A stretch of 64,000 bases of DNA from Dictyostelium discoideum (GCA_000004695.1 CM000150.2:4832001-4896000), one strand, 5' to 3'; shown: positions 1 to 48,597, counted from the first letter of the stretch. Numbers and translations are program-made. The notes: generated from the letters alone by a model not told the origin.

Positions 1-2473
1 TTTGAAGTTTTCTTTGGTGGAGCCTTTGGTTTTGATGATACAACTACATCATCATCGAAATCAGAATCTGAATCTAAACTAACCAAAGTTGATTTCTTAA
101 CGGCTGGTGTTGGTTTCTTATCTTCTTTAGCGAAAAAAGATTCAATTGGTTTTGTATTTGAAGAGGTTGTAGTAGAGGTTGAAGTTGAAGTTGTATCATC
201 AGACTTCTTTCTTTTTGAACCAGAAACATTTGAATCGGTGGTTGTTGGAATTTTAACGGTTGGTTTAACCAATTTAGTTAATGGAGCTTCTTTTGTATCT
301 TTGACAACTTTAGCAGAGATTTTCTTTGCTCTTGGAAGTGCTTTGGTTTTAGTTCTCTTTTTGAGGGATTCAGTTTGATTTTTGAGTGATTCATCATAAG
401 CATCTTGATCATCCAATGCTTTTTCCAATGCATCCAAATCTCTTTTGTAAATCTCTTGAATTGGAGTACTGAGTAAGATATCCCATTCCTTCTTTTTGGA
501 ATCTCTTTCTTCGATTAATTTTTTAACTCTTTCCAAAGTAAGACTCCATAATGGTAAAGATAATAAATAGTCATAACCTTTGGTATCATCATCTTGTTCC
601 TCTTGAGCACCATCTTTCTCTTCATCGGATGAAATTGCAGCATCTTCTTCATCGAAAGCATTCTTCTTTTTCTTTATTTTATCTCTAGCGGATTTATTAG
701 AGTTTTTGTTTATAATTCTATCAAACTTCATTTCCTTTAATTTGTTAATGAGATCAACTTTTTTAACATTTGAAATTACCAATTCCTTATTTACAACGGC
801 TAAAATGAAACGAGCTTTATTTGAAAGACGAGAATATTCTTCAGAGAGACGCTCAGAGAGGAAATCTTTTCTCATTTGATAGTGTTTGATTCTTAATGGG
901 AAGAAATGTTCTTGTAAGGCAGTGGTGGTTGCAAATCTTTGAATACGACCTTCTTCATCGAATACTACCATATTGGTTTCATTAATTGTGGAAACGAGTT
1001 TAAAAACTTTTTCAATGTTAATTTCATCGACTGGTTGAATGGTGTCAATAATGAAATGAATAGTTGATTCAGAGGAGTAGTTGGTATATGATTTAACGGT
1101 TGCTTCAGTGACTTTTTCATTATCATCATCATCATCGACTCTCTTTGATCTCTTTGTAGTGGTTGGTTTTGCTTTAGTACCTTTTCTACTAGCAGCCTTC
1201 TTTTCTTTCTCTTCTTTCTTTTTCTTTCTAGTACCTGGAGTTTCTAATTCATCCAAGAGTTCTCTATAATCTTGAGTCCAAAAACCAATTGGTAACTCTG
1301 TGATTTCAAATCTATTATCGGATAATTTTTTCCAAATACCTTTGGAAAGATATTGACCACCTTGTACTTTGGAACCTTGATTTGCTTCGATGGAACCAAG
1401 GAAACCTCTATACCATGGTTTGATTGGTTTCAATGGTTTACCATCGATTGCTAATCTCATATTTTGAATTAAATCTCTTGGATTATAATTTGGAATTGTA
1501 CTTGACCAACCTGTACCAATACCAACACAACCATTTACTAAAATCATTGGAATAACTGGAATATAGAATTTTGGTTGAACTTTTTTACCATCATCTACTA
1601 CACAAGATAGAATTGGATCATCATCGGCATGATAAACTGCTCTGGCAATATCGTTCAATCTGGTATGAATATATCTTGCACTTGAACAATCTTTACCACC
1701 TGCAATTCTAGTACCATAGGAACCTGCTGGATTTAAAAGATTGATATTATTTGAACCGACAAACTCTTGAGCCATACCAACGATGGTAGAATATAAACTT
1801 GCTTCACCATGATGATATGCAGAATGTTCAGAGACGTAACCAATCAATTGAGCTACTTTGATTTCTTTCTTTAGATTTCTCTTGAAACAAGAATAGAGTG
1901 TTTTTCTATGTGAAGTTTTTAAACCATCTACAATGTTTGGAATGGATCTTTCACAATCGGCAATAGAGAACAATACCAACTCTTTATTGATGAAATCAGA
2001 GTATGTTAATTTCTTTACACCAAATTGTTCTAAAAAAGTGCCTTCAATATGTTCTGCCATCCATTTCTTTCTATCATCAGCTCTAGACTTTGAAAATGCT
2101 AATTCAATATTATCATTGGCACCTTCATCCCATTCGAAATCGATTTTATGTCTCTCTAAATCAGAGAAATACTCTTTACCTTCACCTGGTGTACTTGTAC
2201 CCAAACCCTTGTAATATTTGACATCCCAACCTTTATCATTGGTTTCTCTCCATTTCAAAAATTCTGGCATTGTATAAAATGAAATTGGTTTTTGATTATT
2301 CTTAAAAACTTTAACAATTGGTGTAATAAATTCAACTAAAAATCCTGGCATTCTTAATAATGTTGGCCAAAAATGATGAACCATATTAATAATTAAACCT
2401 TTAATATGTGAACCATCATGATCCTATTATTTTTTTTAAAAAATAAAAAATAAATAATAATAAAATGTTAAAT

Positions 2474-2516
<43 letters not shown>

Positions 2517-4350
2517 TACTTACTTGATCAGTCATAATCATTAAATGACCATATCTTAAATCTGAAAGAGTTTCATAAACTTTACCATATTTTAAACCAA
2601 GAATTGTAACAATATTATTGATTTCATCATTATTGATAACTTTTGTACTTTGATCTCTAACATTTAATAATTTACCTTTGAGTGGGAAAGCACCATAATG
2701 ATCTTTACCAACTACAGAAATACCAGCAGTAGCTAAAGATTTAGCACTGTCACCTTCTGTTAAAATGAGTGTACAATCTTCAGATTTTGTTCCACCAGCT
2801 AAATTGGCATCATCTAATTTTGGAATTGAAACTTTACCTTTTTTACCACCACTTGATGTCGATCTTTTGAGAGCACTTTGATCTTTAAATTGTGCAAACT
2901 CGAGAATTGAAGCGACAATACCTGATTTTGAATCTAATACTCTTTTAATGAATTTTTCAGATGGTTCACAACGAGAACCAAATGAAGAGATCTTTGATGT
3001 GAGAGTTTCTTTGGTTTGACTATCGAAATGTGGGTTTTCAATTAAACAATTGACAAAGACTGATAAATGATTTTTAATGAAAGCTGGTTTAATATCTGCG
3101 GAACCTTTATTCTTTTTATTTACTTGTTCTTGAATGGCGGTAACGATATTACTAAGAGCATGAGTTACATGTGTACCACCTTTGACTGTACAAATTGAAT
3201 TTACAAAACTAACTTGATTGAATTGACTCTCCTTTGAGAGAGTGACAGCAAGTTCCCATCTATCACTAACTTTTTCATAGTAAACTTTTGGTGCATTCTC
3301 TTCATCTGGAAAATAGAGATTAATATATTTTTCAAAGGATCTAATACCCAACTCTTCGTCGTTGAGGGAAACTTTAAGTGTTGGATTACAACCGGCAATA
3401 TCATAAACACGTTTGGAGAGTAATGCAACCAAATCATCATCAAATTCAACCATACCAAAACGATCGAGTTCTGGATAAAAGGTAATCTTTGTATAATCGG
3501 TTTTATTTTGATATGAGGTGATCTTTGGATCCTCTTTGGAACGCATGTTATTAGTGAAGGTTTGTTTATACAATTTCTTTGACTTTGAATCGGCACACTC
3601 TACAATGAATTTAGTACTGAAAATATTGGCCAACTTTGCACCGAAACCATTACGACCACCAGTTAATCTCTTTTCAGAGTCATCATAATGGCTACTTGTT
3701 AAGAGATTACCAAAGATTAATTCTGGAATGTAGATTTTATGTTCACTATGAACTTGAATTGGGATACCAGCACCATCGTTTGTAACCGAGATAAATCCCT
3801 TTTCTCTATCAATTACGACCTTGATGAATTTCATATTACCTTCTCTTTGTTTATTATCGGCAGCATTTACTAAAATTTCATCGAAAATCTTATAAATACC
3901 TGGTACGAATGATACCTTTCTATGTACCATTCTTTTGTCTTCCCATACCCAAAGTTCTTCTTCTTGTCTTTCAGTGGAACCAATATAAGTATCTGGACGT
4001 AAGAGAATTTGATCGAGTAATTCTTTCTTTTGATAAATTTCTTCAATTGATTTACCTTTTTTAGCACTAGATGCAATATTTTTAAATACATTTTCATTAT
4101 CTGATGAACTTGATTTATCATCTCCACTAAAATCATCATTATCTGATTCACTTTTCTTTGATGTTGTTGATTTTTTCGTGGTACTTGTGGTTGTAGTTGT
4201 TGCTTTCTTTGCTGCTGGCTTTCTTGTTGCTGATGCTTTTTTCTTACTACCTGCTGCTGCTGGTTTCTTTGGTGCTGATTTACCTTTTTTTACTGGTGAT
4301 TCATATTCTGATCCACTACTTTCATCACTATAATCATTTTCTGAATCAGA

Positions 4351-4353
<3 letters not shown>
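1..4353 (-). CDS. top2: DNA topoisomerase II (type IIA, nuclear form), 3'-partial (C-terminus runs off the left edge). Exon 1 is 2524..4353 (610 aa, ATG at 4353..4351). The intron is 2424..2523 (GTAAGT...AATAG). Exon 2 is <1..2423.
   Basis: Minus-strand translation gives MSDSENDYSDESSGSEYESPVKKGKS... followed by the GHKL ATPase region (FDEILVNAADN, VTNDGAGIP, GGRNGFGAKLANIFS). Exon 2 continues DHDGSHIKGLIINMVHHFWPTLL...CERSIPNIVDGLK..IGYVSEHSAYHHGE..GSYGTRIAGGKD..PKFYIPVIPMILVNG, all canonical Top2 motifs. The exon-2 frame is open with no stop down to position 1, which is why the ORF finder did not list it. The A/K/S-rich N-terminal extension suggests the nuclear rather than the mitochondrial isoform. 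Confidence 0.93.

Positions 4354-4412
<59 letters not shown>
4354..4412. promoter_or_regulatory. Homopolymer dT59 (dA on the coding strand) directly abutting the top2 start codon. Comparable tracts abut many starts in this window, as is typical of this genome.
   Basis: cat + ttttt... from 4354. The ORF finder translated it as poly-Lys. Confidence 0.6.
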
Positions 4413-4421
<9 letters not shown>

Positions 4422-4980
4422 TAACAAACACAAAATTAAATTAATAAAAAAAAAAAAAAAACAAATAAAAAAAAGATAGAAATAATTATAAAAAAAAAAT
4501 TATTTGACAGAATATAAAATAAATAATAAAAAAAAAAAAAAAAATTTTTGTTATTTTTTCATTAAAAAAAAAAAAAATTTGTGAATGAAAAAGAAAAAAA
4601 AATGGCGCCAAAAATAAAAAATATTAAGAAAAATGAAAATTCTTTAAAATTAAAAACTTAAAAAACGATTAAAATAAAAAAAAAAACAACATTCGCTCTA
4701 TAATTCAAAAAAATAAAATAAAAATTAAGTTAAAATAAAAAAAACTCATTGCATTATTATTAATAATTAAAAGTTAGGTAAATCTAAAAATTATAAATAA
4801 AAAAAAAACAAATGTTTTTCTTTTGTTTATTTATTTTTTATAAATGTTTAATGTTAATCTTTCTTTTTTTTTTATTTTTTATTTTTTATTTTTTTTTTTT
4901 TTTTGAAATTCCAAATTAAGATGTTACTAAATAATCTAAAAAAAAAAACCAATAAAAATACAATTTGGAATTCTATTAAA

Positions 4981-5018
<38 letters not shown>

Positions 5019-5025
<7 letters not shown>

Positions 5026-7376
5026 TGATTTGATTTTTTTAAATAATTTAATAAAAATACATTTTCAATTTTTTCATAATCATATGAATAATTGAATGAA
5101 TCTTTTAAAAATTTAGCCAATTCAATACTACCATTTCTTTGAGATTCAGTAATGATAATTTCTTGGTATTGTTTAGTTGAAAATAGTTTTTTATAAGATG
5201 ATAATAATTGAAATCTATCATTTTGACAAGCATATTTAAAGAAAATTTTTCCTAAAGTATTTTTTATAGCCAAAACTTCGTTTCCCCCCTTTTTTTTATT
5301 TTCAGGAGTAAAAGAAATAATTCTTTTAATAATTAATTGAAAAGATATAAAATCACCTCTTTTACCAAGTTCCATTAATAAAGGTATTAATTTTGATATT
5401 GAAAAATTGAATAAAAAAAACATTGGTAATGTTGAAAGTCTAGATTCAAAACCACCTTGAAAATAATGATATAACAATGGAGGTTCATTTGAAAAACTTG
5501 GATCAATACCAAAACTACATCTACCAGATTCGATATCAGATTTCTTTGAATTCATTAACCAATGTATAATTTGATAATAATCAGGTCCAATAGAATTTGA
5601 ATCAAAATAACAACGATATAATTTATTGGATGGAGTTGATTCAACAAAGAATTTATAAGTTTCAAATGAATTATAAAGAAGAGCAGGTTGATTAATATCT
5701 GCAATTTTTAATGGTAACCAAATGTCGACTTCACGATAATGTTTTAAAAAATCATCAATATTTTTATAAATAAAAGTATATGCAGTAATTGTTAAAATCA
5801 TATTTGGCCATTCTTCAATTGATTCTATTGTTTGTTTATATTGTTTTTCATAAAATTCTTTATAATGATTTAAAATTATTAAATTAAATTTACAAGAATA
5901 AGTTATTAAATAATAAATTGGTATCATTGGTAGTGGTGATAATCTATTATAAAGATAATCAAAAACTTTAACTGATTTTGATTTACATAAACTAAAAAAT
6001 TGGATATCAATAGATTTAAATTCTTTTTCTTGTAATTCTTGATATTTATTAAACATAAACTCAATTAATTCTAATTCATCGAAAATTATTAATTCATTTA
6101 AAAGTTGTTGAATTGTAAAATTTTTAGGATTTGATGGATTTTTTAAAATTTCTTTTAAAACTATAGAAATATATTGAAATTGTAAGATTTTATCATATTT
6201 AAAATATTTAAATGGGAAAAGTAAAGAATCATGCCAAATTAATATATCTTGAAAATCTAAAACTATTGATTGGTCAATTGAAAATTGTGAGAATTTACAT
6301 TGATATTTTTTAAAATAAAATGAAATATTATCTTTATAAAAATTATTTCTTAATGATAATGATGAAAAGAAAGAGATTTCAGTCAATTCCTCTGTGAATG
6401 GTATTAAATTTAAAAATAATTTTTTAATATTTCCATTATATTCATATGAATTAAATAAGTAAATTTTAGTTGTTAAATCATTTTCATTGAATTTCATTTC
6501 ATCCAATTCATTTAATGTTAATAATGAAAAGTTTTCATTATTTACAATATTACAATTTGATTTTCTTTCAATCTCTAATAAATTGAAAACATTTTTAATT
6601 TTTAAAATTGTATAATTTGATTGTAACAATTGCAATAAATTTATATTTTCAATTTCAATTGGGTATAACCAATTTAATAATTCTGGTATCTCTTTAACTG
6701 GTTGGTCAATTTTTAATTGATTTAAAATAAAATCAATACTCGAATTAATTAAAAAAATTCTATTTTCATCATTAGTGTCACTAATATATTCTTTAAATTC
6801 AATTAATATTTCTTTCCAAAAATTATCAATATTAAAATTACTTTTTGAAATTAATTTAAATTTATCATTAATAAAATTTGAAATTTTAAATGAATTATTA
6901 ATAATTGATAATTTAAATAATTTATATAAATTATCATAATCATTTAATAATAATGATTCTTTATAATCTTTTAAATAATTATTATCATCATCATTATCAA
7001 AAAATAATTTGAAACCAGTTAAACAATCACATTTAATTAATAATTGAATACATTCATTTGATGATGGTAAAAAGTAATCTTTATAATTTTCAAATAATTC
7101 TATTAAAAATTCTAAATCTTCATTTAATTCATTATGTTTGAATATTAATTCTAAAGCTGATGGATTTCCAATTTCTTTAAAAAAGAAAAGATGTTCACTT
7201 CTTTTAACTTTTGATTTTAAAAGTGATGCATATTTATTTTTAATCATCCATTCAACACTAATAATTTCTTGATAACTATATTTATTATGTTTTGATTCAT
7301 TTTCATCTTTTATAAATCCTAATATTTTATTTAAAAGAAATTTATTTTTAAAAACTTTTGTTGTTGGATTATTCAT
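5019..7376 (-). CDS. Hypothetical N/K/F/I-rich protein of 785 aa; no recognisable domain, apparently a single exon
   Basis: Uninterrupted 2358-nt minus-strand ORF (MNNPTTKVFKNKFLLNKILGF...LNYLKKSNQI). Codon usage and length are consistent with a real Dictyostelium gene. No motif recognised by eye. Confidence 0.5.
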
Positions 7377-7905
7377 TTTTTTTATTATTATTTTTTATTA
7401 TTTTGACAATAAAAAAAAAAAAGAAAAAAAAAAAAAGAAAAAAAAAAAAAGAAAAAAAAGTAAAAAAAAACAATCAAAAAATAAAAAAAAAAACAATCCA
7501 AAAATAAAAAAAAAAAATTTGTAAATGTAAAAAAAAAAAAAATAAATAATCAAAAAGTAATTGATTGACAATCTGGGTGGGAATATTGGATATTTATTTT
7601 TTAAATTATTATTTTTTTTTTTTTTTTTTTTTTGGATATGAAAAAAAAAAAAAAAAATTAGATAATTAAAAATAAACTTAAGCAGTAAATTTAACACAAA
7701 GTTTGACTAAATTTTTTTGGTTGGTTAGTTTGTTGAGTTATATTTTTAAATTAAATTTAATTTCTAAAGTAATATCTCTGAACTTACTTGACATTGAAGG
7801 CATTTTATTGCTATTTGATGCAAAAATCTTGTGATCTGGAGGTTTTACAATTGTTATTTTTTTAGCCATTTTATGTTTAGTTATAAAAATGATTGAGATA
7901 TGAAG

Positions 7906-7941
<36 letters not shown>

Positions 7942-8356
7942 CTAACAACGAAAAAAAAAAATATAAAAAAAATAAAAATTAAAAAAATAAAAATAAAAAT
8001 ATAAAAATATTATCCGAAAAAATAAAAATATAAAAAAAAAAATTGATCATCTATTTTTGAAAAGGTTTGGGTTTCACCAAATTTTTTATTTTTTTTTTTT
8101 TTTTTTTTTTCATCATTTTTATCTTGAATTGCACAATATTTATTTATTTATTTATTTAAATATCATTTTTATAAAAATAATTTTTAAATAAATAAATATT
8201 AAGAATAAATTATTTTTATTAAATAAATCTAATATATTTTTTTTTTTTTTTTTTCCTTAACATTTTTTAATTTTAAATTTTAAATTATTATTATTTTTTT
8301 TTTATTTTAATTATTTTTTTTTTTAAAATTTATTTATTATAATGATAATATTTTTT

Positions 8357-9439
8357 TTAATGTTTTTTTTCTTTTTTTGGGATTTCAGTACCCATAGTAC
8401 CACGATGAAGTTTTTGAATGACTTCACCAGAGATTGTAGAATCAATGATTGAGGAGACATCATCAGGAGTTACATAACCATACCAGTTACCTGGTGGGAA
8501 AACCAAAACGTTACCAGCATATTTATGACCACCGACATGAGAGGTACCAAATACTTGAATTTCTTTTTCCAAAGATCTTTCTTTAATTTGATCTCTTAAT
8601 TGATCGACTAAAATTGGACCACAATAACCACAACGTTGATCTTTTTGTTTATGAGTACAAATAAAGATATATTTTCCACTCAATTGTTCAACTTGAATTT
8701 CCATTGGGAATGTTGAAAGATCAATAGTATCATTATCTTGGAAATAGGTTAAAACTTTTTCCATAGTGTTTGGAGTTAATCCAACCAATTTAACCATTTC
8801 TGGGAAAATGATTACATCTAAGCTATCCTTATTCAATGGTTGAATATCTGTTGCATTGATAATTTGATTCTTTCTTGGATTATTTTCATACTTTTTCATT
8901 ACTTGTTGAAAACTTTCTAAAAGTGGTGTAGCACTATATAATTTAGCTGGCCATTCTTCACTTGGAATACCAGTACAAATAAAATAATGTCTATGATATG
9001 TCGAAATAGAATTATTTGGTGTTTCTCTATTTGAATCTACCATTTCTGGTCTTTTTTAATTTTAAAAAATAAAAAAAAAATAAAATAAAATAAAATAAAA
9101 AAAAAATGTTAATAAATTTATAAATTTTATTTTATTTAATTTAATTTATTATTTTTAAAAAACTTACCTGCAAAAGCCACATTTTGCGATTAATTCTTCA
9201 ATATCTAATATTTGTGGTTGTTGTCTTTGACCTTTATTAACATTTGAATTAGTTGATGGTTCTGGAGCTGGTGTTGGTGTTGGTGTTGATTTTGTAGTTG
9301 GAGTATTATTTTCTTGGACGTTAAATGATGATAAATTATGATTATTATTTGAATAATATCTAAATAAAAAGGTAGTCACTGCAACTGAAAAACCAATAGT
9401 AGCAGCAAGAGTTAAAATCTTTAAATTTTCTCTACTCAT
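8357..9439 (-). CDS. Sucrase/ferredoxin-like (Apd1/Aim32-type thioredoxin-like ferredoxin) family protein, 321 aa. Exons are join(9168..9439, 8357..9050), with intron 9051..9167 (GTAAGT...AAAAAAG).
   Basis: Exon 1 reads MSRENLKILTLAATIGFSVAV...ELIAKCGFC with a phase-2 donor GCAG|GTAAGT. Exon 2 reads (R)PEMVDSNRETP...ICTHKQKDQRCGYCGP...FGTSHVGGHKYAGNVLVFPPGNWYGYV. The CxxC plus HxGGH pattern is typical of the Sucraseferredoxin-like family. Confidence 0.7.
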
Positions 9440-9837
9440 TTTTTTTTTCTGTTTTTTTTTTTTTAATTTACAAAATAATAATAATACAATAATATTTAAT
9501 TTATTTCGAATTGGAATTAAATTTTTAATTTAAAAAAAAAAAAAAAAAAAATGAAAAATGAAAAAACAAAAAAAAAAAAAAAAATAAAAAAAAATAGAAA
9601 AAAAAAACAATAATGAAAATATTATTATTATTATTTTTTTAAAATTATGGATATTTAAGTAAAAATTATTATTTTGATTAAATACTAACATTTTGATATA
9701 GGTTGAAATAAAATTGACTTGTTATGACAATAATTATTAGCTAGTAACGAGCTTACAATTTTTGTTTTAGAAAATTTTGAAACAAATGAAATCATTTTTT
9801 AAAAAAAAGTGAAAATGAAAAATAAAAAAAAAAAAGA

Positions 9838-10072
9838 AACGTTTTTAAAAAAAAAAAAAATAAAAATAAAAATAAAAAAAAAAATAAAAAAAAAATATAA
9901 AATCAACACACGAATTCAGGTCACTAATTTGTCAATAAACTATGATCATATAATTTGTTAGGATGTACAAAAATTTAAAAAAAAAAAAACGTTTCTCTTA
10001 AAGTTCTACGGAACGTTTGGAAGAAAAATCATATCTTCTGAAATCACAAAAAAAAAAAAAAATAACGTTTTT
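9838..10072. promoter_or_regulatory. Cluster of four AACGTTT motifs (two are perfect AAACGTTT palindromes) in the 5' flank of the ferredoxin-like gene and the 3' flank of the SLC4-like gene. Candidate cis element.
   Basis: gaaacgttttt (9838), aaaacgtttct (9988), ggaacgtttgg (10010), taacgttttt (10064). CpG-containing heptamers are strongly under-represented in the surrounding poly-A sequence. Confidence 0.25.
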
Positions 10073-13007: not shown

Positions 13008-13418
13008 TTAAGCACGTTCACCTCTGATACGTCTTGCTAATTGAATATCTTTAACCATGATAGTAACACGTTTGGCATGAATTGCACATAAATTAGTATC
13101 TTCAAATAGACCGACCAAGTATGCTTCAGTTGCTTCTTGGAGAGCTTCAATTGCAGCAGCTTGGAAACGAAGATCAGTTTTAAATTCTTGTGCTATTTCT
13201 CTTACTAAACGTTGAAATGGTAACTTTTTAATTAAAAGATCAGATGATTTTTGATATCTACGGATTTCTCTAAGTGCAACAGTACCTGGTCTGAAACGAT
13301 GGGTCTTCTTTAAAACTTCATTAACAGGTTTACTTGGAAATGATGATTTTGAACTTAAATGTTTTCTTGGAACTTTAGCACCTGTTGATTTTCTAGCTGT
13401 TTGTTTTGTACGGGCCAC
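13008..13418 (-). CDS. Histone H3 variant (136 aa), intronless
   Basis: [58 protein letters not shown]...ERA shows the H3 fold and signature motifs. The N-tail carries a lineage-specific insertion between the K27 and K36 equivalents. This is one of the Dictyostelium H3a/H3b-type variants. Confidence 0.95.
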
Positions 13419-14005
13419 TGTAAATTAAATAAAAATAATAAATTAGTAATCTTTTTTAAAATAATTTCTTTTTTTTTTTTTTTTTTTTTGATTTTACTTT
13501 TTAAAACTTAAAGATGGAAATTTAAATCAAATAATTTGAATGAGTGTAGGATTGGTGTGTGTGGATAATTAAAAAAAAAAATATTATTATTTATATTGAA
13601 TATGGGTGTTAGATTTTATTATTAAAAATTTGGAAATTAAAAAAATAGGGAAAAAAAATAGTTTTTTAAATATTTCCTTTTTTATTAATTCAAGATTGTT
13701 TTGAAAAAAAAAAATAATATATAAAATTATAATAATTAAAAATAAAATAAACATTACTATTTTGAAATTGAAAAATAAAATCTATAAAAATAACTTTAGA
13801 GAATTTAATTATTATTAATATTTTTGATTTTAAAAATAAAAATATAATTAAAGAAATCAAATAGAAATGAAATTAAACAAAAAAATAAAAAGAGATAGAT
13901 ATCCAATCAAAAGTTTTTGAAAAGAAATTGGTTTTTTGTGTGGTGTTAAAAAACACCTTTGGAGTGGTTACACTCTATTTGGTTCAATTGAAATTTGTAA
14001 TAATT

Positions 14006-14416
14006 TTAAGCACGTTCACCTCTGATACGTCTGGCTAATTGAATATCCTTAACCATGATAGTGACACGTTTAGCGTGGATGGCACATAAATTGGTATCTT
14101 CAAAGAGACCAACCAAGTAAGCTTCTGAGGCTTCTTGAAGAGCTTGGATGGCAGCAGCTTGGAAACGAAGATCGGTTTTGAATTCTTGTGCGATTTCTCT
14201 AACTAAACGTTGGAATGGTAACTTCTTGATTAAGAGTTCAGATGACTTTTGGTATCTACGGATTTCTCTAAGTGCGACAGTACCTGGTCTGAAACGATGG
14301 GTCTTCTTTAAACCTTGGGTTGATGGAAAAGATTTTTGAGAAGATTTGTTACCCAAATGTTTTCTTGGTACTTTAGCACCAGTTGATTTTCTAGCGGTTT
14401 GTTTTGTACGGGCCAC
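14006..14416 (-). CDS. Histone H3 variant (136 aa), a tandem paralog of 13008..13418
   Basis: [62 protein letters not shown]...ERA. It has the same orientation as the first copy and lies 1 kb upstream. It differs in the tail insert and at many synonymous sites. Confidence 0.95.
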
Positions 14417-15142
14417 TATAAATATTTTAAAATTTTTTAATATTAGTATACATATTTTATTTTATAACACTCATTTGTTTTTTTTTTTATTATTATTGAA
14501 TTATTGATTATTTAATTTTATTTTATTATTGTTTTTTATTGTTTTTTTTTTTTTTAATTCTTACTCTTAAATTAAAATTGAGAATGTGAAATATATAATA
14601 TAAAGGAAATAATTATTTTCAATCGAGTGTAGTGTAAGTTTTTTTGTTATGAATGATAAAAATTTCAAATTTTTTTTTTATATGGCGTGGAGCCGTTGAA
14701 TTTCATAGGTGATGTTAATTTTTTTGCATATAAAAATTTTTTTTTTTTTGATTTTTACCTTTCAAACTGTTTTCAAATTTTTAAAAAAATAAAAAAAAAA
14801 AATTTGGCGCCCTGATATTTTAAACACAATTTGAAAATGTGAAAGTAACTGTTTAAATTTTTTTTTTTTTAAAAAAAAATCCTTAAATGGTTATTTTGAA
14901 TATATTTTTAATTTTCATTCATTTTCTTTGAAAAAAATAAATAAAACCAAAAATAAATAAAAGAAATGAAATGAAATTTTATTTATTGTTTTTTCCAAAC
15001 TCAATAATTATTTCTTAAAAAGTTAATTGTTATTCAATAATTTAAATTTAAAGTTAAAATAATCTTTTATTTTTATTTTTATTTTTTTTTATTTTTTTTT
15101 ATTTTTTGTTGTTTAGATAAAGAGTAGTTTTGATTTCCTAAA

Positions 15143-24057: not shown

Positions 24058-24091
24058 GTTTTTTTTGATTTTCTTTTTTTGATATTACCTT

Positions 24092-24685
24092 CTATCTCTT
24101 CATTGGAGGTGCAGGTGCTTGACGAGCACCAACTGGTGGAGGAGCCTTGAAAGATGGTGGAGCTGGTTTACTGGCAACTGGTGGTGGGGCTTTGAAAGAT
24201 GGTGGAGCTGGTTTACTGGCAACTGGTGGTGGAGCTTTAAAAGATGGTGGAGCTGGTTTACTGGCAACTGGTGGTGGGGCTTTAAAAGATGGTGGAGCTG
24301 GTTTACTGGCAACTGGTGGAGGTGGTGAAGCAGTATTTTTGGCAATTAATGGTGGTGGAGGCTTCTTCAAAGGTGAGGAAGTTGGTGGAGCAGGAGCTGG
24401 TGATTGCTTGGCAATTAATGGTGGTGGACCTCCTGCCTTTTTCAAACCACCTGGTGATGGTGTAAACATACCCATTGGTGGACCTCCCATTCCCGGTCTT
24501 GGCATTCCGCCTCCGCCACCTCCGCCAGATTTATCAGCTTGTAAAACTGGCTTTGATTTATCTACTGTTACAGTTTTTTTTAATTTTGCACCTTTTTGAA
24601 TTGAATTTAATAATGCACCTCTTTCAGCTGTTTTAGGTGGGGCTGGGGCCACTGGAGCTGGTGGTGGTGGTGGTGGTGGTGGCAT
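24092..24685 (-). CDS. Verprolin/WIP-like proline-rich WH2-domain protein (197 aa as drawn; the 3' end may be incomplete)
   Basis: MPPPPPPPPAPVAPAPPKTAERGALLNSIQKGAKLKKTVTVDKSKPVLQ closely mirrors the N-terminus of WIP/verprolin (MPVPPPPAPPPPP...GRNALLSDISKGKKLKKTVTNDRSAPIL), which is a WH2 actin-binding motif. A G-rich linker follows, then four perfect 15-aa repeats PPPVASKPAPPSFKA (45-nt units, 24148..24330). A TAG stop lies at 24092..24094. Confidence 0.7.
   Translation of the reverse strand: MPPPPPPPPAPVAPAPPKTAERGALLNSIQKGAKLKKTVTVDKSKPVLQADKSGGGGGGGMPRPGMGGPPMGMFTPSPGGLKKAGGPPPLIAKQSPAPAPPTSSPLKKPPPPLIAKNTASPPPPVASKPAPPSFKAPPPVASKPAPPSFKAPPPVASKPAPPSFKAPPPVASKPAPPSFKAPPPVGARQAPAPPMKR
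24148..24330. repeat. Four tandem 45-bp coding repeats (minus-strand peptide unit PPPVASKPAPPSFKA) in the WIP-like gene
   Basis: ggtggagctggtttactggcaactggtggtgg(g/a)gcttt(g/a)aaagat recurs at 45-nt period with only two wobble substitutions. Confidence 0.9.
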
Positions 24686-25326
24686 AGTTTTTTTTTAAAA
24701 ATTTATAAAATATAAAAAATGTCTAAACTAAATTTAAAATTATTTATTTTTATTTATTTGTATATATAAATAAATAAAAAATTATCTTTTTAATATTAAA
24801 AATTAAAATATTGATTTATATTTGGATTTTTTTTTTTTTTATAAATGTAAAAAGAAAAAAAAAATTTAATAAAAAAAAAAATTGATTGCTTTTTTTTTTT
24901 TTTTATAATAAAATTTGGTAATTAAGATATTTTTGGTGCGTGATTATTTGAAAAAAAAAAAAAAAAAAATCCAAAAAAAAAAAAAAAAAAATCCCAAAGA
25001 AAAAAAAAAATCAATTTAATAAATGTTTAAATCCATTATTTAAATAATTAACCCAAAAAAAAAGAGTTATATTTAGAAAAAAAAATAGTTTTTGACAATT
25101 GTATAAAAAAAAAAATAAATTGGATTTAAACATTTTTAAAAGTTTTACCACTTTTTGTTTCAAAACTTCTCAAAGGCAAACTATCCAAAAATAATTTTAT
25201 GAGTATAAAAAATAAATAAATATTTGTATATAATGATTAATTTTTGCAAATAACAAATTTTTTTTTTATTTATTTTTATTTTGATATGTTTAATAATAAA
25301 TAATAAATAATAAAAATAAATTATGA

Positions 25327-41136: not shown

Positions 41137-42835
41137 TTAATTTAGAGATAAGAATTTGACTCGGATAAATTGATTTCCTTGAATTTTTTGTCCATCAAGA
41201 TTTTGTTGAGCTAAAATTGCATTTTCTGCATTATTAAAAGATATGAAACATTTTGTTTTGTTACTATTTGGATTTATATTTATCTATTTTATAAAATGAT
41301 AATAATTAGTAACCAATTTGAAAGAAAAAAAAAAAAAAAAAAAAAAAAGGTAAATTCCAAATAAAACACTTACATTTATACTTTTTAAATCTCCATATTT
41401 TGAAAAAATCTGGATTAAATTTGAATATTCTAAACTTCCTTTAAATGTGCAAACCAAAATTGAAACTGAATTATTATTTATAGTTTTAGTATATTTTGGT
41501 GAGGATGGTGGTGATTGTTGTTGCGGTTGTTGTGGTTGTTGAGGTTGGTATTGTTGTGCGTATACAATTGGTTGTTGTGGTTGTGGAATATGATGATGAT
41601 GATGATAATAATATGATGTTGCTGTTGGATATACGTAATAATTTTGATCAGTTGGTTGCCATGAATAACTTTGTTGTGGGGAAGTGGAATGTAATTCCCC
41701 ATTTGTTGAGTAAACACCATTTGAATAATGATCATAATAATTATTTGAGTATGAATTTGAATTATATTCCTAATTTTAAAAAAAAAAAAAAAAAAAAAAA
41801 TTAATATTAAAATTAAAATTAATAGATAATCTATTTAAACTAAGAGAATATATTAAATATTTACTTGTGATGCATAATAACCTTGATATGGCTCACCTTG
41901 ATAAACATATGAATATTGTGGTGGTGGAGGAATTGATGGTAATGGTGGTTGTGGAATTGATTGTGGTGGTTGTGGAATTGATATTGGTTGTATTGATTGT
42001 TGCTGCTGTTGTTGTAGTTGTTGAGATGATTGATTATTATTATATTTTTGTGGTTGTGGAGATGATGGACGTTGAGGTTGATTTGGAGAAGATGAACGAT
42101 TTGGAATATTTGTTAAAGAAGAAATTGAGTTAGTTGTGGGACTTGGTGTTAAAGAAGATGTTGATGATATAGATGAATTTGATAATGATAAATAAGGAAT
42201 TTGAATTGATTGTTTTTTACCATTAGGTGCATACTTAACTATTTTTTTTTAAAGAAAATATATACATATATACGTACATATTAATATTTGTTTTTTTTTT
42301 TAAGGAATATAAAATAAAATAATATCTTACCAACTAAAGGAGTTTCACCTAAAATTAAAGAACCAGACATTGATTGTAAAGCATTTGTTGAATAATGAAT
42401 ATTTGAGAATTTAATAACGCCGGCTCTCTTACTTTTTCCACTACTGGCATCAATTAAAACTTGAGCCTCAATAACTTCACCAAATTGAGAGAATGTTGAG
42501 TTTAAAATTGCATCAGTAATTGTTGGTGATAATACTCTAACATAAAGAGTATTTGATGGATCTCTTTGTTGTTCAGTTTGGGATGGTGAAGTAGTTGCAC
42601 CACCATTTGAATCTGGTACACAACAACTAATACCACCATTTCCATTGTTACCTACAAATGGAGACACTGGTGGTGAATTTGATGGTTTCGATAATTTACA
42701 TAAAAGTGTCTTATATCCAACTTGATATCTATTCATATTTTTAATTGCTTCACAAGCATTTTCTGGATTTAAAAATCTTACAAATCTATTTAAAATATAT
42801 TATAATTAATATTTTGGATTTTTTTTTTTTTTTTT

Positions 42836-42878
<43 letters not shown>

Positions 42879-43021
42879 TCATACCCATATCCTAAGCTAT
42901 TTCCAGTTTTAATATTAACCATAACTTTTGTATTTACAATTTCTCCAAATTGTTCAAATAGATCATATAATTCTATATTTTTTTATTTATTTAATTATTT
43001 ATTTTTTGGTGATTAAATAAT

Positions 43022-43067
<46 letters not shown>

Positions 43068-43220
43068 ATTAATAAATGAAAAATATTATTTTATTTAAAA
43101 TTCAAGAGTATTACCTTTTTCTGAAAAATTACATGGTAAATATTTTACAAAAACATTACAAATATCAACTTCGGAATCTAATTCAAATTCTTGACTTATT
43201 GGTTCAACTTCCATTTTCAT
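41137..43220 (-). CDS. ELAV/CELF-like RNA-binding protein with three RRMs, 521 aa. Exons are join(43115..43220, 42885..42972, 42331..42785, 41865..42238, 41374..41769, 41137..41283).
   Basis: RRM1 carries RNP2 NVFVKYLP and RNP1 LGYGFVRF. RRM2 carries LYVRVL and RAGVIKF and ends ...LGETPLVVKYA, the ELAV/CELF-type linker. A P/Q-rich spacer follows. RRM3 is SILVCTF...KCFISFNNAENAILAQQNLDGQKIQGNQFIRVKF. All six exons and their phases were checked by coordinate arithmetic (1566 nt). Confidence 0.85.
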
Positions 43221-43338
43221 TTTTTTTTTTTTTTTATTTTAAAATTTTATTTTAGGTTTCGGATTGAGGGTGTGAACTTTAATATTTTTTTATTTTAATA
43301 TTTTTTTTTTTTTTTCTTTAAATGAAAAGTTAATAATA

Positions 43339-43377
<39 letters not shown>

Positions 43378-44291
43378 CTTATAAAAAAAAATAAAATTAA
43401 TTATAATAATACAAAATGGTTTTTTTATTTTTGTTTTGGTGATGTGTTGTGAAAATGAAAGTGAAAATAATTTTTTTTTTTTTGTTTTTCAAAAAAGAAA
43501 AATAAAGTAAATGTGATTATAATCACAAAAAAAAAAAAAATAAAAATAAAAAAAAAAATAAAAAAAAAAAATTAAAATAATAATAGTTTGATTGGCGAAT
43601 GAAAAATATTTTAAAAAATCTAAAATTCTGTGCAAAGTGTATTTTTATTATTTTGATTATTTTGAAATGATTGAAAATTTTTAATTGGTTTTATTTATTC
43701 GATTGGCAAAAAAAAAAAATAAAAAAAAAAATATAAAAAAAAATAAAAAAATAAAAAATAAAAAAAATAGAAAAAAATAATGGTTATTGGTTTGGATATG
43801 GACTTATATGAATTAAAAATCTGACAGACGATCACCCTTTTTTTTCCAACCAATCAAATGACCAATTAACCATAATCAAAAGAAAAATATCTTAAAACCG
43901 ACAAAGACATTCGACAAAAAAAAAAATATGAAAAATAAAAAATAAAAAAAATAAAGTAAAAAAAAAAAAAAACTGCAAAAAATCCAAAAAAACGATACTT
44001 GCAAAACAAAAAAAAAAAAAATAAAATAAAATGTAATGACCGTTATGGGAGAGAAAAGGTATTTTTTTTATGGTGCACAGAAATATTATTGTTCGTTTCT
44101 AAACAGATTTAAAAAAAACCAAAATTTACCCTAACACTTAATTAATTAATTAATTAATTAATTAAATTATTTTATAGATTTCTGATATATTTGGAATATG
44201 GTTTTGAAATGATTATTATAATTGATTTAATAAAAAATGTAAATGGTTTTTTCTAAACAATTTTTTACTTTTTTTATTTTTTTTTCAATTT

Positions 44292-44349
<58 letters not shown>

Positions 44350-45040
44350 TTATTTGATTATGGTGAATGTTGTTTAATTATTTTTTATTTTTTTTTAAAA
44401 TAGGTTTTTTTTTTTTATAGTTTTTTTTTTTTTTATTTTTTTTTTAAAAAAAAAAAAATAATAACAAAAAATTAAATAAAATAAATTGTTTGAATTGGAA
44501 AGGGTTTTAAATATTTTTTAATATTTTTTTAATAATTTTTTTTTTTTTTAAAAAAAATGATTGCCACAGGAATCGAATAACCATATTTACTAAATTGTCA
44601 ATTCGATCGGTTATAATTTTTGTGAAAAAAATGAAAAAAAAAAAATATATACATGCAATCTATGTTTCGAATCAAGATTCCAAAAAAAAAAAAAAAAAAA
44701 AAAAATATGAAAATAAATATCCGAGGTTTTTTTAACGAAACACAAATAACATGAAAACAAATCTAAGAATTAAAACCTCCAAAAACCCTTTTACGTATTG
44801 GTATCTCTACTTTTTGTGATAAATAAGTTGATCGCATATATTTTTAATTAAAAAAAAAAAAAAATTTTAAAAAAAAATAATACATATGACTTTTACTTTT
44901 TTGGATTTACTATGCACAAAGTTATTGATTAACTTTAAAATGGTTGGTTATTTTAATTATGTGATAGTTTTGTTATTGAATTTTATTTTGTTTTTATTTT
45001 TATTTTAGTTATTTTCTTTCTTTTTTTTATTTTATTTTAT

Positions 45041-45071
<31 letters not shown>

Positions 45072-45793
45072 TTCTATCCTTATAAATTTTGTTTTTTTTT
45101 TTTTTTTTTTTTTTTAATTATTTATTTGAAATTATTTTTTATTTTATTTAAATGATTGTTTTAAAATGAAATGAAATAATTTTATTTTCCTTATGTCAAA
45201 AAAAATTTTTTTTTTTTAAAATTAAAAAAAAAAAAATAAAACCCACGAAAATGTATTTTGATTGTTTTGGGGCATTTATTTTAAGATACATGACCTATTT
45301 TTGGCACCAAATTTTTTTTTTTACAAAAATAGTTTTTTTTCAAAAAAAAAAGACGAAAATTTTAAAATTGGGTTAATGCCCGCATGAATATTTAAAAACA
45401 AAAAATTGCGCCAATTCGATTAACAAGATAATAGGCCCGCCAACTATGTGAATGATATCTCACACCACGAGATTAATAAAAATTTGTGTGAATTTTAGAT
45501 TTATTAAAAAAACCAAAAATAAAAAAATCAAAAAAACGAAAGTGCTAATAATATGAACCAATCAAATTTGGTCTTATTTTATATATCTAAATTTTTATTA
45601 TAAATATTTACTTTTATGATGTTTTTTGGATATTGATCACGGTATAATGGTGAATTAATTATCTATAATTGTAATACGAAGGGTTTGATGTAATTATTAT
45701 TTGTGGTGATGATTTAAGCTAATTATAGTTTTTTTTTTTTTTTTTTTTATAATTATAATAATTATTATTATTATTTTTTTTTGAAAATTAAAT

Positions 45794-45827
<34 letters not shown>

Positions 45828-45854
45828 ATTTATAAAAAAAAAAGTGAAGATAAG

Positions 45855-45903
<49 letters not shown>

Positions 45904-46600
45904 AAAAAAACTTACCCAAACATTACATTACGAATAATAAATTTTCTATTATTGATTTTAAAATCATTTAATACTATTTGAACCTTAACGAGAGAGAGGG
46001 GGTGCATTCTTAATTAATTCAATCCTTTTTTTTAACTTGCACTGACGTTCTGGGATGTTAATAATAGAGTGCAGAATTAATTTAATTTTATTTTATTTTT
46101 TTTTTAATTTTTTTTTTTTTTTGTGAAATTTTTTATTTTAATCATTTCGTGATGGGTAAAAAAAAAAAAAACCACCATCAAAACGACTGTATAACAACAC
46201 AATGAGATAGATTTAATTAAACAAAAAAGCCAAAATTAAACAACGGTTTTTTCCTGGGGAATCTTTCAAAGGGTAAATCTATTAATATGTTTTTTTTTTT
46301 TTCAAACTTTTTTTTTAAATTTATTCCAGAAGATCTACATATTTGCCTTTATTAAGAATAAGAATCAAAAGAAGAGTTTTTTTTATTTTATTAATAAAAA
46401 TAATTTCGGTGGGTGTGGGTTGATATAAAAAAAAAATTAAATATTAAAATTTAAAACTGAACCACATTTTTTATTTGAAAAAAAAAAATATCTTGTGGGT
46501 AATACGATTTTGGATATCATGGTGTTATTACTTTGATTATTAAAGATAAGATTTTAATCTCGTCTAAAAATTTTTTTTTTTTGTTTTTTTTATCTGTTTC

Positions 46601-46888
46601 TTATAATAAAATTGGAAATAAAAAAGATATATTTTTTTTTTAAAAAAAATAAAAAAAACACAAAAAACAAAATAAAAAAAAAAACATATTGCAATATTAA
46701 AATCTTAATCTTTCACTGGTTGAATTTTTACTTTTTTTTTTTACTTTTAAAAATTCAACCAGTGAAAGACACGCTCACTTTAAAAATAATTATATAACAA
46801 CAAGATAAATGGTGAGTTTAATTAAAGATTTTATTTTTTTTTTTGGTTTTTTTTTTTTTTTTTTTATAATAAAATTGGAAATAAAAAG
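46601..46888. repeat. Pair of 25-bp direct repeats TTATAATAAAATTGGAAATAAAAAG (46601..46625 and 46864..46888) flanking the hairpin; each is preceded by a poly-T tract
   Basis: Exact 25/25 match 263 bp apart, seen directly. Confidence 0.8.
46710..46768. repeat. Perfect 21-bp inverted repeat (ctttcactggttgaattttta / taaaaattcaaccagtgaaag) with a 17-nt T-rich loop: a stable hairpin in an otherwise gene-free interval
   Basis: The reverse complement of 46710..46730 equals 46748..46768 exactly. G/C-containing perfect palindromes of this length are rare in this AT-rich background. Confidence 0.85.
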
Positions 46889-46999
46889 AAGTATTTTTTA
46901 AAATTAAGGTGATATTAAAAATAAACAAAGATATTAAATTGTTTATTGTTTTTTTTTATTAGTTTGTTAATTTATAGATTTATCTATAGTTAAATTATA

Positions 47000-48597
47000 T
47001 TAAACATCAATTGGTTCTTGAATTTCATCAGTTTGAATTGGTTCTTCTTTTGGTGGAGTTGATGGTAAAGTTGATGACAAATGATCAGTATTCATATCAC
47101 TTTTATCAATTTCTCTTTGTTCAGTATGATTGAATTTACATTTTGGATTTGTACACTCTTTACCAAACTATACATAAAAAAAATAAAAAAAAGGAAAAAT
47201 AAAAAGTTTAAAAATTAGTACCCTTTTGATTGGTTGATTGGTTGATTGGTTGATTGGTTGATTGATTGATTGATTTTTTAATAAAAGATACTTACTTTAC
47301 AATCAGGTATTGGTTGTTCAACAGAATGATGAGCAAAAGTACAATTTGGAGTAACGCAATTTAAACCATAGAGACAAGGTTTACCATGACCGAATGGGCA
47401 AGCTTTACCCATATTACAACTTGTACCGAATTTACAAGCTGGTGGTGGGTGATAAAATCCACAACCAGTCTTTTTATTTGGACAAGCAAAACCATTTCTG
47501 CATGGAATTTCGTTCATTGCTGGTGGTGTAGCAACTGGTGCAGTGGGTCTTTGTGGATGATTATAAACACAATCTACATTTGTACAATTAATTCCAAATT
47601 TACATGGAATTGATGGATGAATATATAAACATTTATCGCCATATGTGCAATTTGGGAATAACCTATACATATTGTTTTTCATTTTTTTAAAAAACATATT
47701 AATAAATTAATTTCAATTTTCTTTTTTTAATTTCTAAAAAATATTATTATGTTTCCATATGAAAAGATTGAAATATAAAATTAATACTTACAAACATTGA
47801 GTTGTTGGATGGTGATATATACAAGCTTCAGCATTTCTACATAATGGCCAATATGAACATCTTTCTTTTTTTGATTTTTTCGGTGAAACTAAATCCAAGG
47901 GTATATTAACTGGATCATCAGTTGTATCATTGATTGTATTACTTTTATCGATTTCATCATCATCATCTCTATTTATATTTTTTCTTTTCTTTGATCCTGT
48001 ATTTATATCATTCATTGTAATTGTAAAATTTGGTTGTTGTTTATTATTACTATTATTACCATTCTTTCTATTACTATTATTATTATTATTATTATTATTA
48101 TTATGTTTATCTTTTTTTATAAAATCTTTTTTACCATTACTATAGGTATTATTGCTACTATTGTTACTATTATTATTATTGTTATCAATATCATAATGAG
48201 AATCATTTAAAGATTCTTCAGTCATTGGCACTCTAACATTTTTTGTATCTTCAGCAGCTTGTTTTACTGCATTTAAAATTAATCTTTGGGTTGGTGGTTT
48301 CTTTGCGGTTTGTTGTTGTTGTTGTTGCATAGTGGTATCGTTGATTTGTTTTTGTTTGTTAATGGATTCAAAATATGATGGTATATAATTCCAAAGCCAT
48401 CCGGCAAATTCACCTGCTTTATCAATACCAATGAAATCTGATAAATCATTTGCCATCTCTTCTTTGGTTTTATTATTTCTTACCATAACTGATATATACT
48501 CTGTTAAAATATTATCACACTCTAAATAATTCTTTACTTCATTTTGAATTGTATCCACGATCTCTGGTGTATAATTATATCCACCTAATGTTGTCAT
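47000..48597 (-). CDS. ZC3H14/Nab2-like nuclear poly(A)-binding CCCH zinc-finger protein, 446 aa. Exons are join(47792..48597, 47296..47662, 47000..47167).
   Basis: The N-terminal PWI-like domain (MTTLGGYNYTPEIVDTIQNEVKNYLECDNILTEYISVMVRNNKTKEEMANDLSDFIG..AGWLWN) parallels ZC3H14/Nab2. There is then a Q/N-rich low-complexity middle. Tandem CX5CX4-5CX3H fingers follow (CSYWPLCRNAEACIYHH; CTYGDKCLYIH; CKFGINCTNVDCVYNH; ...; CKFGKECTNPKCKFNH, which spans the last intron). Confidence 0.8.
47221..47275. repeat. (TTGATTGG)5(TTGA)4 compound microsatellite inside intron 2 of the ZC3H14-like gene
   Basis: ttgattggttgattggttgattggttgattggttgattgattgattgatt seen directly. A G/C-containing octamer repeat is unusual in these introns. 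Confidence 0.9.

Follow-up and report, generated by a model that had tools for sequence, protein, structure and literature searches.

A non-coding interval upstream of a Dictyostelium RRM gene as a probable extended cis-regulatory domain with a divergent long non-coding RNA

The DNA considered here is a 64,000-nt window of chromosome 1 of Dictyostelium discoideum AX4 (chr1:4,832,001-4,896,000; GCA_000004695.1, CM000150.2), with a G+C content of 23% and genes that are dictyostelid in kind, and the subject is one non-coding interval within it, at 43221-46999 (chr1:4,875,221-4,878,999; positions given without a chromosome are counted from the first nucleotide of the window, and the offset of 4,832,000 was checked against both flanking genes). 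The interval runs from the ATG of the RRM gene DDB_G0270436 to the stop codon of a ZC3H14-like gene, DDB_G0270816; both genes are read from the minus strand, which puts the interval upstream of the former and downstream of the latter. It is probably an extended 5' cis-regulatory domain of DDB_G0270436, composed of a bidirectional promoter with a divergent long non-coding RNA (lncRNA), a set of conserved modules, and an unconstrained distal spacer.

In the organization proposed for this domain, a first zone (43221-44297) would hold a promoter at 43221-43444 from which the RRM mRNA is transcribed leftwards on the minus strand and the lncRNA (43445-44297) rightwards on the plus strand. A second zone (44300-45760) would add about 1.5 kb more of cis-regulatory DNA, in which short blocks, probably transcription-factor sites including CCAAT boxes, are held constant in primary sequence and spaced by poly(dA:dT) tracts of variable length; one of these blocks, at 45410-45740, would serve either as a distal enhancer or as an additional, unannotated promoter. 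The third zone (45760-46999), of about 1.2 kb, would be nearly unconstrained spacer that forms the 3' flank of the ZC3H14-like gene. The short G/C-richer islands of the interval, in which an earlier note on this DNA had seen candidate non-coding RNA loci, would then be information-bearing segments of regulatory DNA.

Constraint on the sequence of the interval

Loci of close relatives were compared from two further D. discoideum strains, D. cf. discoideum, D. citrinum, and D. firmibasis, in all of which the gene order and an unannotated, collinear gap of 3.5-3.8 kb are kept. Pairwise identity of this gap to that of AX4 is 0.96-0.997 in the strains, 0.93 in D. cf. discoideum, 0.82 in D. citrinum, and 0.76 in D. 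firmibasis. In a four-way alignment of AX4, one further D. discoideum strain, D. citrinum, and D. firmibasis, identity is 0.2-0.45 in introns and 0.8-0.9 in the flanking exons, and several blocks of the interval reach 0.84-0.92, with conserved blocks at 43600-43700, 44650-44850, 45250-45300, and 45450-45750. Windows of 50 nt with a four-way identity of at least 0.8 make up 17% of the interval compared with 0-8% of six other spacers, and invariant runs of 20-33 nt, each with several G or C positions, are concentrated in the interval relative to those spacers.

Because aligned A/T runs match trivially, conservation was scored at G/C sites. On this scale the segment of the lncRNA (43445-44297, plus strand) scores 0.57, positions 44298-45200 score 0.55, and positions 45201-45760 score 0.69, with a fall to 0.31 in the distal part at 45761-46999; the comparison classes are other spacers (0.08-0.38), introns (0.22-0.50), and exons (0.75-0.96). 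The gradient therefore confines the constrained domain to the 2.5 kb that adjoin the RRM gene (43221-45760), with the distal 1.2 kb resembling an ordinary spacer. At 0.55-0.69, the proximal part is conserved at about twice the level of similarly aligned spacers and introns, which is above the local neutral level.

Within the constrained domain, the blocks differ in extent and content. The one nearest to the gene, at 43587-43720 within the lncRNA, has a four-way identity of 0.88 in 43600-43699, invariant runs of 30 and 21 nt, and GATTGG/AATTGG (CCAAT-box) sites at 43591, 43684, and 43702 that are conserved in six genomes. An invariant CCAAT box, CCAACCAATCAAAT, follows at 43846-43859 (plus strand), adjoining the first of the G/C-richer islands; ctgacagacgatcaccc, directly upstream of it, varies between species. 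The 3' part of the lncRNA carries a further block at 44028-44125 (TGTAATGACCGTTATGG ... AAACAGATTTAAAAAAAACCAAA). Beyond the lncRNA, the block at 44735-44845 has a four-way identity of 0.84-0.90 and two long invariant runs, one of 33 nt (AACACAAATAACATGAAAACAAATCTAAGAATT) and one of 26 nt, and the block at 45236-45300 (0.88 in 45250-45299) includes ACCCACGAA, the string that had been taken for a DUSE-like promoter element. At 45236-45260, the single ACCCACGAA of D. discoideum is replaced in D. citrinum and D. firmibasis by a tandem ACCCACGAA-ACCCATGA(A/G), which could be a repeated factor site. The best-conserved block, of about 330 nt at 45410-45740, has a four-way identity of 0.72-0.92 and comprises an invariant CCAAT box, AACCAATCAAATTT (45556-45569), TATA-like TTTTATATATCTAA / TATAAATA (45575-45610), and an invariant GGTTTGATGTAATTATTATTTGTGG, and is a candidate for a distal regulatory module or an unannotated promoter. 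The weakly constrained distal part (45761-46999), on the 3' flank of the ZC3H14-like gene, includes the last of the islands.

The constraint does not reflect protein coding. That the interval is free of plausible open reading frames (ORFs), as the earlier note had claimed, is borne out by tests of codon usage and of ORF conservation: among stop-free segments of at least 30 codons in the interval none has a codon-usage score of 5 or more, compared with 15.7 for the flanking first exon of the RRM gene, and no ORF of at least 25 codons in the interval is open and in frame across the four aligned genomes. A hidden protein gene is ruled out by these two tests together with Pfam searches of ORFs in the gaps of other species and tblastx comparisons, both described below.

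Conserved RNA structure is likewise not evident. A sliding consensus-fold scan of the interval against column shuffles gave weak energies and no window that was convincingly distinct. In the block at 45400-45745, RNAalifold found none of 86 predicted pairs to be compensatory, with a covariation term of +4.08, and substitutions break the predicted pairs more often than they preserve them. The lack of both a conserved ORF and covariation thus argues for selection on primary sequence, as for protein-binding DNA. Among the elements that recur within the domain are invariant CCAAT boxes, with AACCAATCAAAT at 43848 and 45556 and GATTGG at 43591 and 43702; TTCGAT, with 4 of its 29 matches in the window falling within the interval, is suggestive only. 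NF-Y acting at the CCAAT boxes is a lead only. The study that singled out the RRM gene also counts nfyA with the transcription factors whose induction comes early in dedifferentiation (Nichols et al. 2020, PMC7190356).

A divergent lncRNA and the search for small RNAs

The literature provides one transcript for the interval. The lncRNA DDB_G3971541 (CUFF_3777_1 / CUFF_694_1) is a single exon of 852 nt at chr1:4875445-4876297 (+), or 43445-44297 of the window, and is taken here from the curated tables of an RNA-seq catalogue (Rosengarten et al. 2017 Files S4, S6, PMC5295588). It is the sole lncRNA of the catalogue in the interval and indeed in the whole window, as adjacent entries in the list fall outside. 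It is encoded on the strand opposite to the RRM gene and starts 225 nt before the RRM ATG, so that the two are divergent, and its transcribed strand is 50% A and 16.8% G+C, with a longest ATG-initiated ORF of 32 aa and an AATAAA at 44229. It lies wholly within the spacer, without a tiling path to either neighbor and with no ORF of 150 nt or more, as the catalogue requires of intergenic lncRNAs. A T55 homopolymer at 44294-44348 (plus strand), at the 3' end of the model, restricts read mapping, and for this reason the true 3' end is uncertain.

The catalogue comprises 621 lncRNA models with medians of 628 nt, 17% G+C, and about 1 read per kilobase per million mapped reads (RPKM), and reports 13% G+C for untranscribed spacers (Rosengarten et al. 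2017, PMC5295588). DDB_G3971541 accords with this class in its single exon, length, G+C content, and lack of a longer ORF. It spans only 23% of the interval, with the block at 45410-45740 and three of the four islands outside it. Thus, the proposal of candidate non-coding RNA loci holds in part: one catalogued lncRNA exists and covers the first island, and small RNAs are unsupported.

The segment at 43221-43444 is, from its position, a putative bidirectional core promoter that would serve both the RRM mRNA on the minus strand and the lncRNA on the plus strand. Twin TA-rich motifs, AAAAGTTAATAATACAA (43325-43341) and TTAATTATAATAATACAAAA (43397-43416), which share TAATAATACAA, flank a T36 run as mirror images of each other between the start regions of the two transcripts. 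The TATA-like TTAATTATAATAATACAAAA is invariant and stands about 30 nt upstream of the lncRNA start, with a T-run between motif and start on the plus strand. Both motifs are identical in all six aligned genomes; the T-run that separates them differs in length. In yeast and mammals, bidirectional promoters are known to give rise to divergent (promoter-upstream) non-coding transcripts, and the arrangement here is alike in the opposite strand of the lncRNA, in its distance of 225 nt from the coding start, and in the mirror-image motifs between. In Dictyostelium, bidirectional promoter activity has been rejected as a general driver of lncRNAs (Rosengarten et al. 2017, PMC5295588).

The G/C-richer islands are themselves ordinary. 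All four that had been singled out, at 43811-43860, 44560-44620, 45240-45500, and 45990-46070, are present there with 28-36% G+C, and they are not special in frequency: islands with a G+C of 28% or more over 50 nt number 3.2 per kb in the interval and 1.4-5.7 per kb in the window's remaining non-coding gaps, and the mean G+C of the interval, 16.6%, falls within the span of 11-22% of those gaps. Parts of the first three islands are kept between species, and the fourth (45990-46070) is poorly kept. A reported RNA polymerase III (Pol III) terminator context at the first island turned out to be one among many T-runs. For genome scans the lesson is that such islands are common in Dictyostelium spacers and by themselves do not indicate small RNA genes.

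The islands had been expected to hold small stable RNAs, namely Class I RNAs, small nucleolar RNAs (snoRNAs), and small nuclear RNAs (snRNAs) with DUSE promoters, and no test favors these. An Rfam search, which the earlier note had proposed as a check, gave no match at gathering scores in the whole window; for snRNA, signal recognition particle RNA, RNase P/MRP, and other curated families the same holds in the window and five orthologous loci. With E values up to 10, the interval has five weak matches at chance level, three of them to one A/T-rich hairpin. ARAGORN found no transfer RNA (tRNA) genes in the window and nine loci. A box C/D snoRNA, another suggested check, is not indicated either, as neither strand of the interval has a C box (RUGAUGA) and a D box (CUGA) 45-140 nt apart, and the best Rfam C/D match in the interval (sn2317) scores 18.9 bits against a gathering score of 50. 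H/ACA snoRNAs gave no match through the Rfam models, with no dedicated H/ACA scan made.

Class I RNAs have more specific traits that can be sought directly. These RNAs of 42-65 nt, with ends paired in a short stem, have a conserved 11-nt motif (CCUUACAGCAA-like) adjoining the 5' stem (Kjellin et al. 2021, PMC7919456), and their promoters have a DUSE (CCCAYAA core) about 60 nt upstream of the start that is conserved in sequence and position (PMC7919456). In 43221-46999, the 11-nt motif does not occur even when two mismatches are allowed, and elsewhere in the window it has 6 matches compared with 9.9 expected. Neither the Rfam scans nor the alignment-fold scan, which did not include the Class I model of Kjellin et al., yielded a candidate RNA of 42-65 nt with an end-pairing stem. 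Exact CCCAYAA occurs 12 times in the window versus 13.1 times expected by chance. Two of these are in the interval, both on the minus strand: that at 44043-44049, a CCCATAA within the conserved block of the 3' part of the lncRNA, has lost its CCC in D. citrinum and D. firmibasis, and that at 46493-46499 is unalignable there. The string quoted as DUSE-like, AAACCCACGAAA, does not match CCCAYAA, having one extra G, and a T11 run about 60 nt downstream of it would halt Pol III immediately.

It is hardly credible, then, that the islands contain small stable RNA genes (Class I, box C/D or H/ACA snoRNAs, or snRNAs) driven by DUSE elements and ended by T-runs. The islands are real and some are conserved, the conserved ACCCACGAA resembles a DUSE, and T-runs are frequent in the interval; like the Class I and other DUSE-driven RNAs (PMC7919456), the sites are intergenic and slightly richer in G/C than their surroundings, with T-runs close by. 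Unlike them, however, the interval lacks the 11-nt motif, a conserved DUSE about 60 nt upstream, and an Rfam covariance-model match. With all motif and model scans negative or at chance level, exact DUSE matches unconserved, an early stop predicted for Pol III, and no compensatory pairs, little is left to recommend such genes.

The oversized gap across dictyostelids and the weighing of explanations

Measured by a codon-usage criterion, the interval is the longest non-coding gap of the window at 3764 nt; the next longest has 2189 nt and the rest 0.6-1.3 kb, so that its earlier description as atypically long and gene-free is apt. The mean spacer in D. discoideum is about 700 bp (Rosengarten et al. 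2017, PMC5295588). Loci from five further taxa were retrieved with the full-length RRM protein as query, and in each of these the spacer that precedes the RRM orthologue far exceeds all others within about 20 kb, which have 0.07-1.3 kb. In positions of the retrieved loci, it extends over 1-4189 in D. purpureum (at least 4.2 kb, to the contig end), 4719-9331 in P. violaceum (4.6 kb), 7094-10000 in T. lacteum (2.9 kb), 4769-10000 in H. album (5.2 kb, with only a dubious 108-aa model within), and 3224-10000 in C. fasciculata (6.8 kb). The gap is upstream of the RRM gene whatever the upstream neighbor, and on this ground it is assigned to that gene. In P. violaceum, H. album, and C. fasciculata this neighbor is an NPC1-like gene, with one more gene intervening in T. 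lacteum; in D. discoideum and D. purpureum NPC1 is on the other side, downstream of the RRM gene. The differing position of NPC1 implies that the gap and the RRM gene stayed a unit through rearrangement.

Nothing in these gaps points to a concealed gene. The gaps of the orthologous loci have no Rfam matches or tRNAs, the longest ORFs in the gaps of the other species contain no Pfam domain above cut-off, and tblastx among the gaps of the six species matched only exon 1 of the RRM gene, the positive control. A far-upstream 5' exon of the RRM gene is also unsupported, as a transcript contig of T. lacteum starts 122 nt upstream of the ATG, giving a 5' UTR of that length, and follows the genome without a break. 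A common feature of composition is an excess of C over G on the RRM-sense strand in the gaps of all six species (in C. fasciculata, C 22.4% versus G 12.5%).

Two annotations in these loci deserve comment. In H. album, a product of 108 aa is spread across 4.8 kb of the gap (4921-9754, minus strand), a gene model that is very probably spurious. In D. purpureum, the RRM gene model (4190-7890) needs 3.7 kb to encode 505 aa, so that either its introns are unusually long or the model is in error; its ATG aligns with that of D. discoideum.

The gene to which the gap is linked is dynamically regulated. In 2-h steps from 0 to 24 h of development, the RPKM of DDB_G0270436 are 29, 25, 66, 106, 47, 220, 77, 40, 32, 20, 18, 8, and 23, with the double peak at 6 and 10 h appearing in both library types, poly(A) included; the ZC3H14-like neighbor is flat over development, at RPKM of 24-51. 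In a focused screen of genes strongly induced early in dedifferentiation, the RRM gene was among the candidate regulators disrupted, and its loss left the cells close to wild type (Nichols et al. 2020, PMC7190356).

Several points weigh against an extended regulatory domain. The mean four-way identity of the interval, 0.58, is barely above that of most other spacers (0.48-0.56; six spacers span 0.23-0.56). Conservation of sequence is detectable only in the clade of D. discoideum, D. citrinum, and D. firmibasis: the invariant blocks are unrecognizable in all five distant taxa, where blastn and best-match searches found nothing beyond chance, and deep conservation therefore concerns the existence and size of the gap and not its sequence. 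CCAAT is not significantly enriched, at 13 occurrences versus 9.2 +/- 2.8 expected for the base composition (P = 0.11). The picture of the lncRNA rests on catalogue tables and not on reads, and low-level transcripts elsewhere in the interval are possible. Further complicating the proposal, the abundance of the lncRNA is uncorrelated with that of the RRM mRNA (Spearman -0.10), unlike what the likeness to divergent transcription in yeast and mammals might suggest, as well as with that of the ZC3H14-like gene (-0.15), so that simple coupling through a shared promoter is not evident. Finally, promoter and enhancer function and the bound factors are deduced.

Some of these points would also suit an inert spacer, whose length and blocks come from a low mutation rate, short divergence, and low-complexity A/T alignment, and whose lncRNA is noise from a bidirectional promoter. 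The small margin in mean identity, the ordinary islands, the low median abundance of catalogued lncRNAs, and the lack of correlation with either neighbor all accord with this explanation. It is nonetheless quite improbable, because G/C sites of the proximal 2.5 kb are conserved about twice as well as those of spacers and introns, with a drop to spacer level in the distal 1.2 kb, because G/C-containing invariant runs of 20-33 nt are concentrated in the interval, and because an oversized gap precedes the same gene in six taxa across all sampled dictyostelid lineages despite their compact genomes.

In the main alternative account, the block at 45410-45740 would supply the promoter and/or 5' part to a further Pol II non-coding RNA that is not annotated, and a positionally conserved lncRNA locus would explain the gap throughout Dictyostelia. 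The order of elements in the block is promoter-like, a CCAAT box being followed by TATA-like elements and T-runs about 20-50 nt on, and its roughly 330 nt of continuous conservation with few indels are unlike scattered short sites. Positions 45900-46500 have 20-24% G+C, compared with the 13% reported for untranscribed spacers, and the travel of the gap with the RRM gene through rearrangement and the C>G skew on the RRM-sense strand in six species also fit. This account is rather unlikely, however, as the curated catalogue has just one lncRNA in the interval and window, conservation downstream of the block is weak on either strand, structural covariation is lacking, and the T. lacteum mRNA contig starts short of the gap.

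An extended cis-regulatory domain of the RRM gene thus stays the preferred explanation. Multi-element developmental promoters are known in Dictyostelium, and in animals conserved non-coding elements and "gene deserts" flank regulators. The interval is like both in its non-coding length, far over the norm, upstream of a dynamically regulated gene, and in its clustered blocks under purifying selection, kept with the gene through rearrangement; unlike animal gene deserts, it measures kilobases and not hundreds of kilobases, and its sequence conservation is confined to very close relatives. A stronger proposal, tentative and with more doubt than confidence, is that the gap is an ancestral, selectively maintained regulatory landscape, a miniature gene desert within genomes that are elsewhere very compact, and that 45410-45740 is a new, clade-specific element of the ultraconserved type. 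The lncRNA is already known, as are conserved regulatory blocks and divergent lncRNAs as kinds of feature. For the clade-level conserved blocks at this locus, and for the oversized gap with the RRM gene in every dictyostelid checked, a literature search found no earlier description.

To our knowledge, very few cis-regulatory regions have been mapped in the compact dictyostelid genomes. A gap of 3-7 kb attached to one RNA-binding-protein gene across the sampled dictyostelid lineages, with a divergent lncRNA and blocks conserved nearly as well as exons in the D. discoideum clade, is a ready test case, which could reveal how complex temporal control is encoded, with its peaks at 6 and 10 h and induction in dedifferentiation, and whether Dictyostelium lncRNAs act in cis.

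A distal hairpin, the flanking genes, and other features of the window

The distal part of the interval contains a near-perfect hairpin with a 23-bp stem at 46708-46770 (minimum free energy -32.4 kcal/mol, z -8.45; within 46690-46790). The hairpin follows the ZC3H14-like stop codon at a distance of 230-290 nt downstream and is present in the D. discoideum strains and D. cf. discoideum and absent in D. citrinum and D. firmibasis. A direct repeat, TATAATAAAATTGGAAATAAAAA(A)GA, brackets it at 46602-46628 and 46865-46890, about 263 nt apart, and the TTGGAAAT core of this repeat is also absent in D. citrinum and D. firmibasis. From its sequence, the hairpin with its duplicated flanks is probably a lineage-specific insertion. 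As a stable hairpin it has one trait of a microRNA (miRNA) precursor; its score against Rfam mir-4679 is 29 bits compared with a gathering score of 88, and as a known miRNA it was rejected, its arm sequence being missing from the miRNA supplement of Liao et al. 2018.

The boundaries of the interval (43221-46999), which contains no coding-like segment and is collinear in close relatives, had been placed correctly: the RRM ATG falls at 43220 (minus strand), and 47000-47002 is the stop codon of the ZC3H14-like neighbor. Both agree with the published coordinates, which are chr1:4873137-4875220 (-) for DDB_G0270436, or 41137-43220 of the window, and chr1:4879000-4880597 (-) for DDB_G0270816, or 47000-48597 (Rosengarten et al. 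2017 File S6, PMC5295588). The two genes were named through protein searches and exact cluster look-ups. The spliced model of the RRM gene has 521 aa, the same length as XP_646802.1, and as a full-length query its protein gave 124 homologues, near-identical D. discoideum entries included; the 172 aa of exon 3 (42284-42799, minus strand) matched nothing as a protein query, in a search whose word index may miss short queries.

Two other features of the window lie apart from the interval. At 24090-24690 (minus strand) there is G/C-rich, repetitive, proline-rich coding sequence in tandem units of about 60 nt, which reaches about 53% G+C in one ORF and is a stark outlier in composition. Two adjacent histone H3-like ORFs are found at 13011-13424 and 14009-14461, both on the minus strand.

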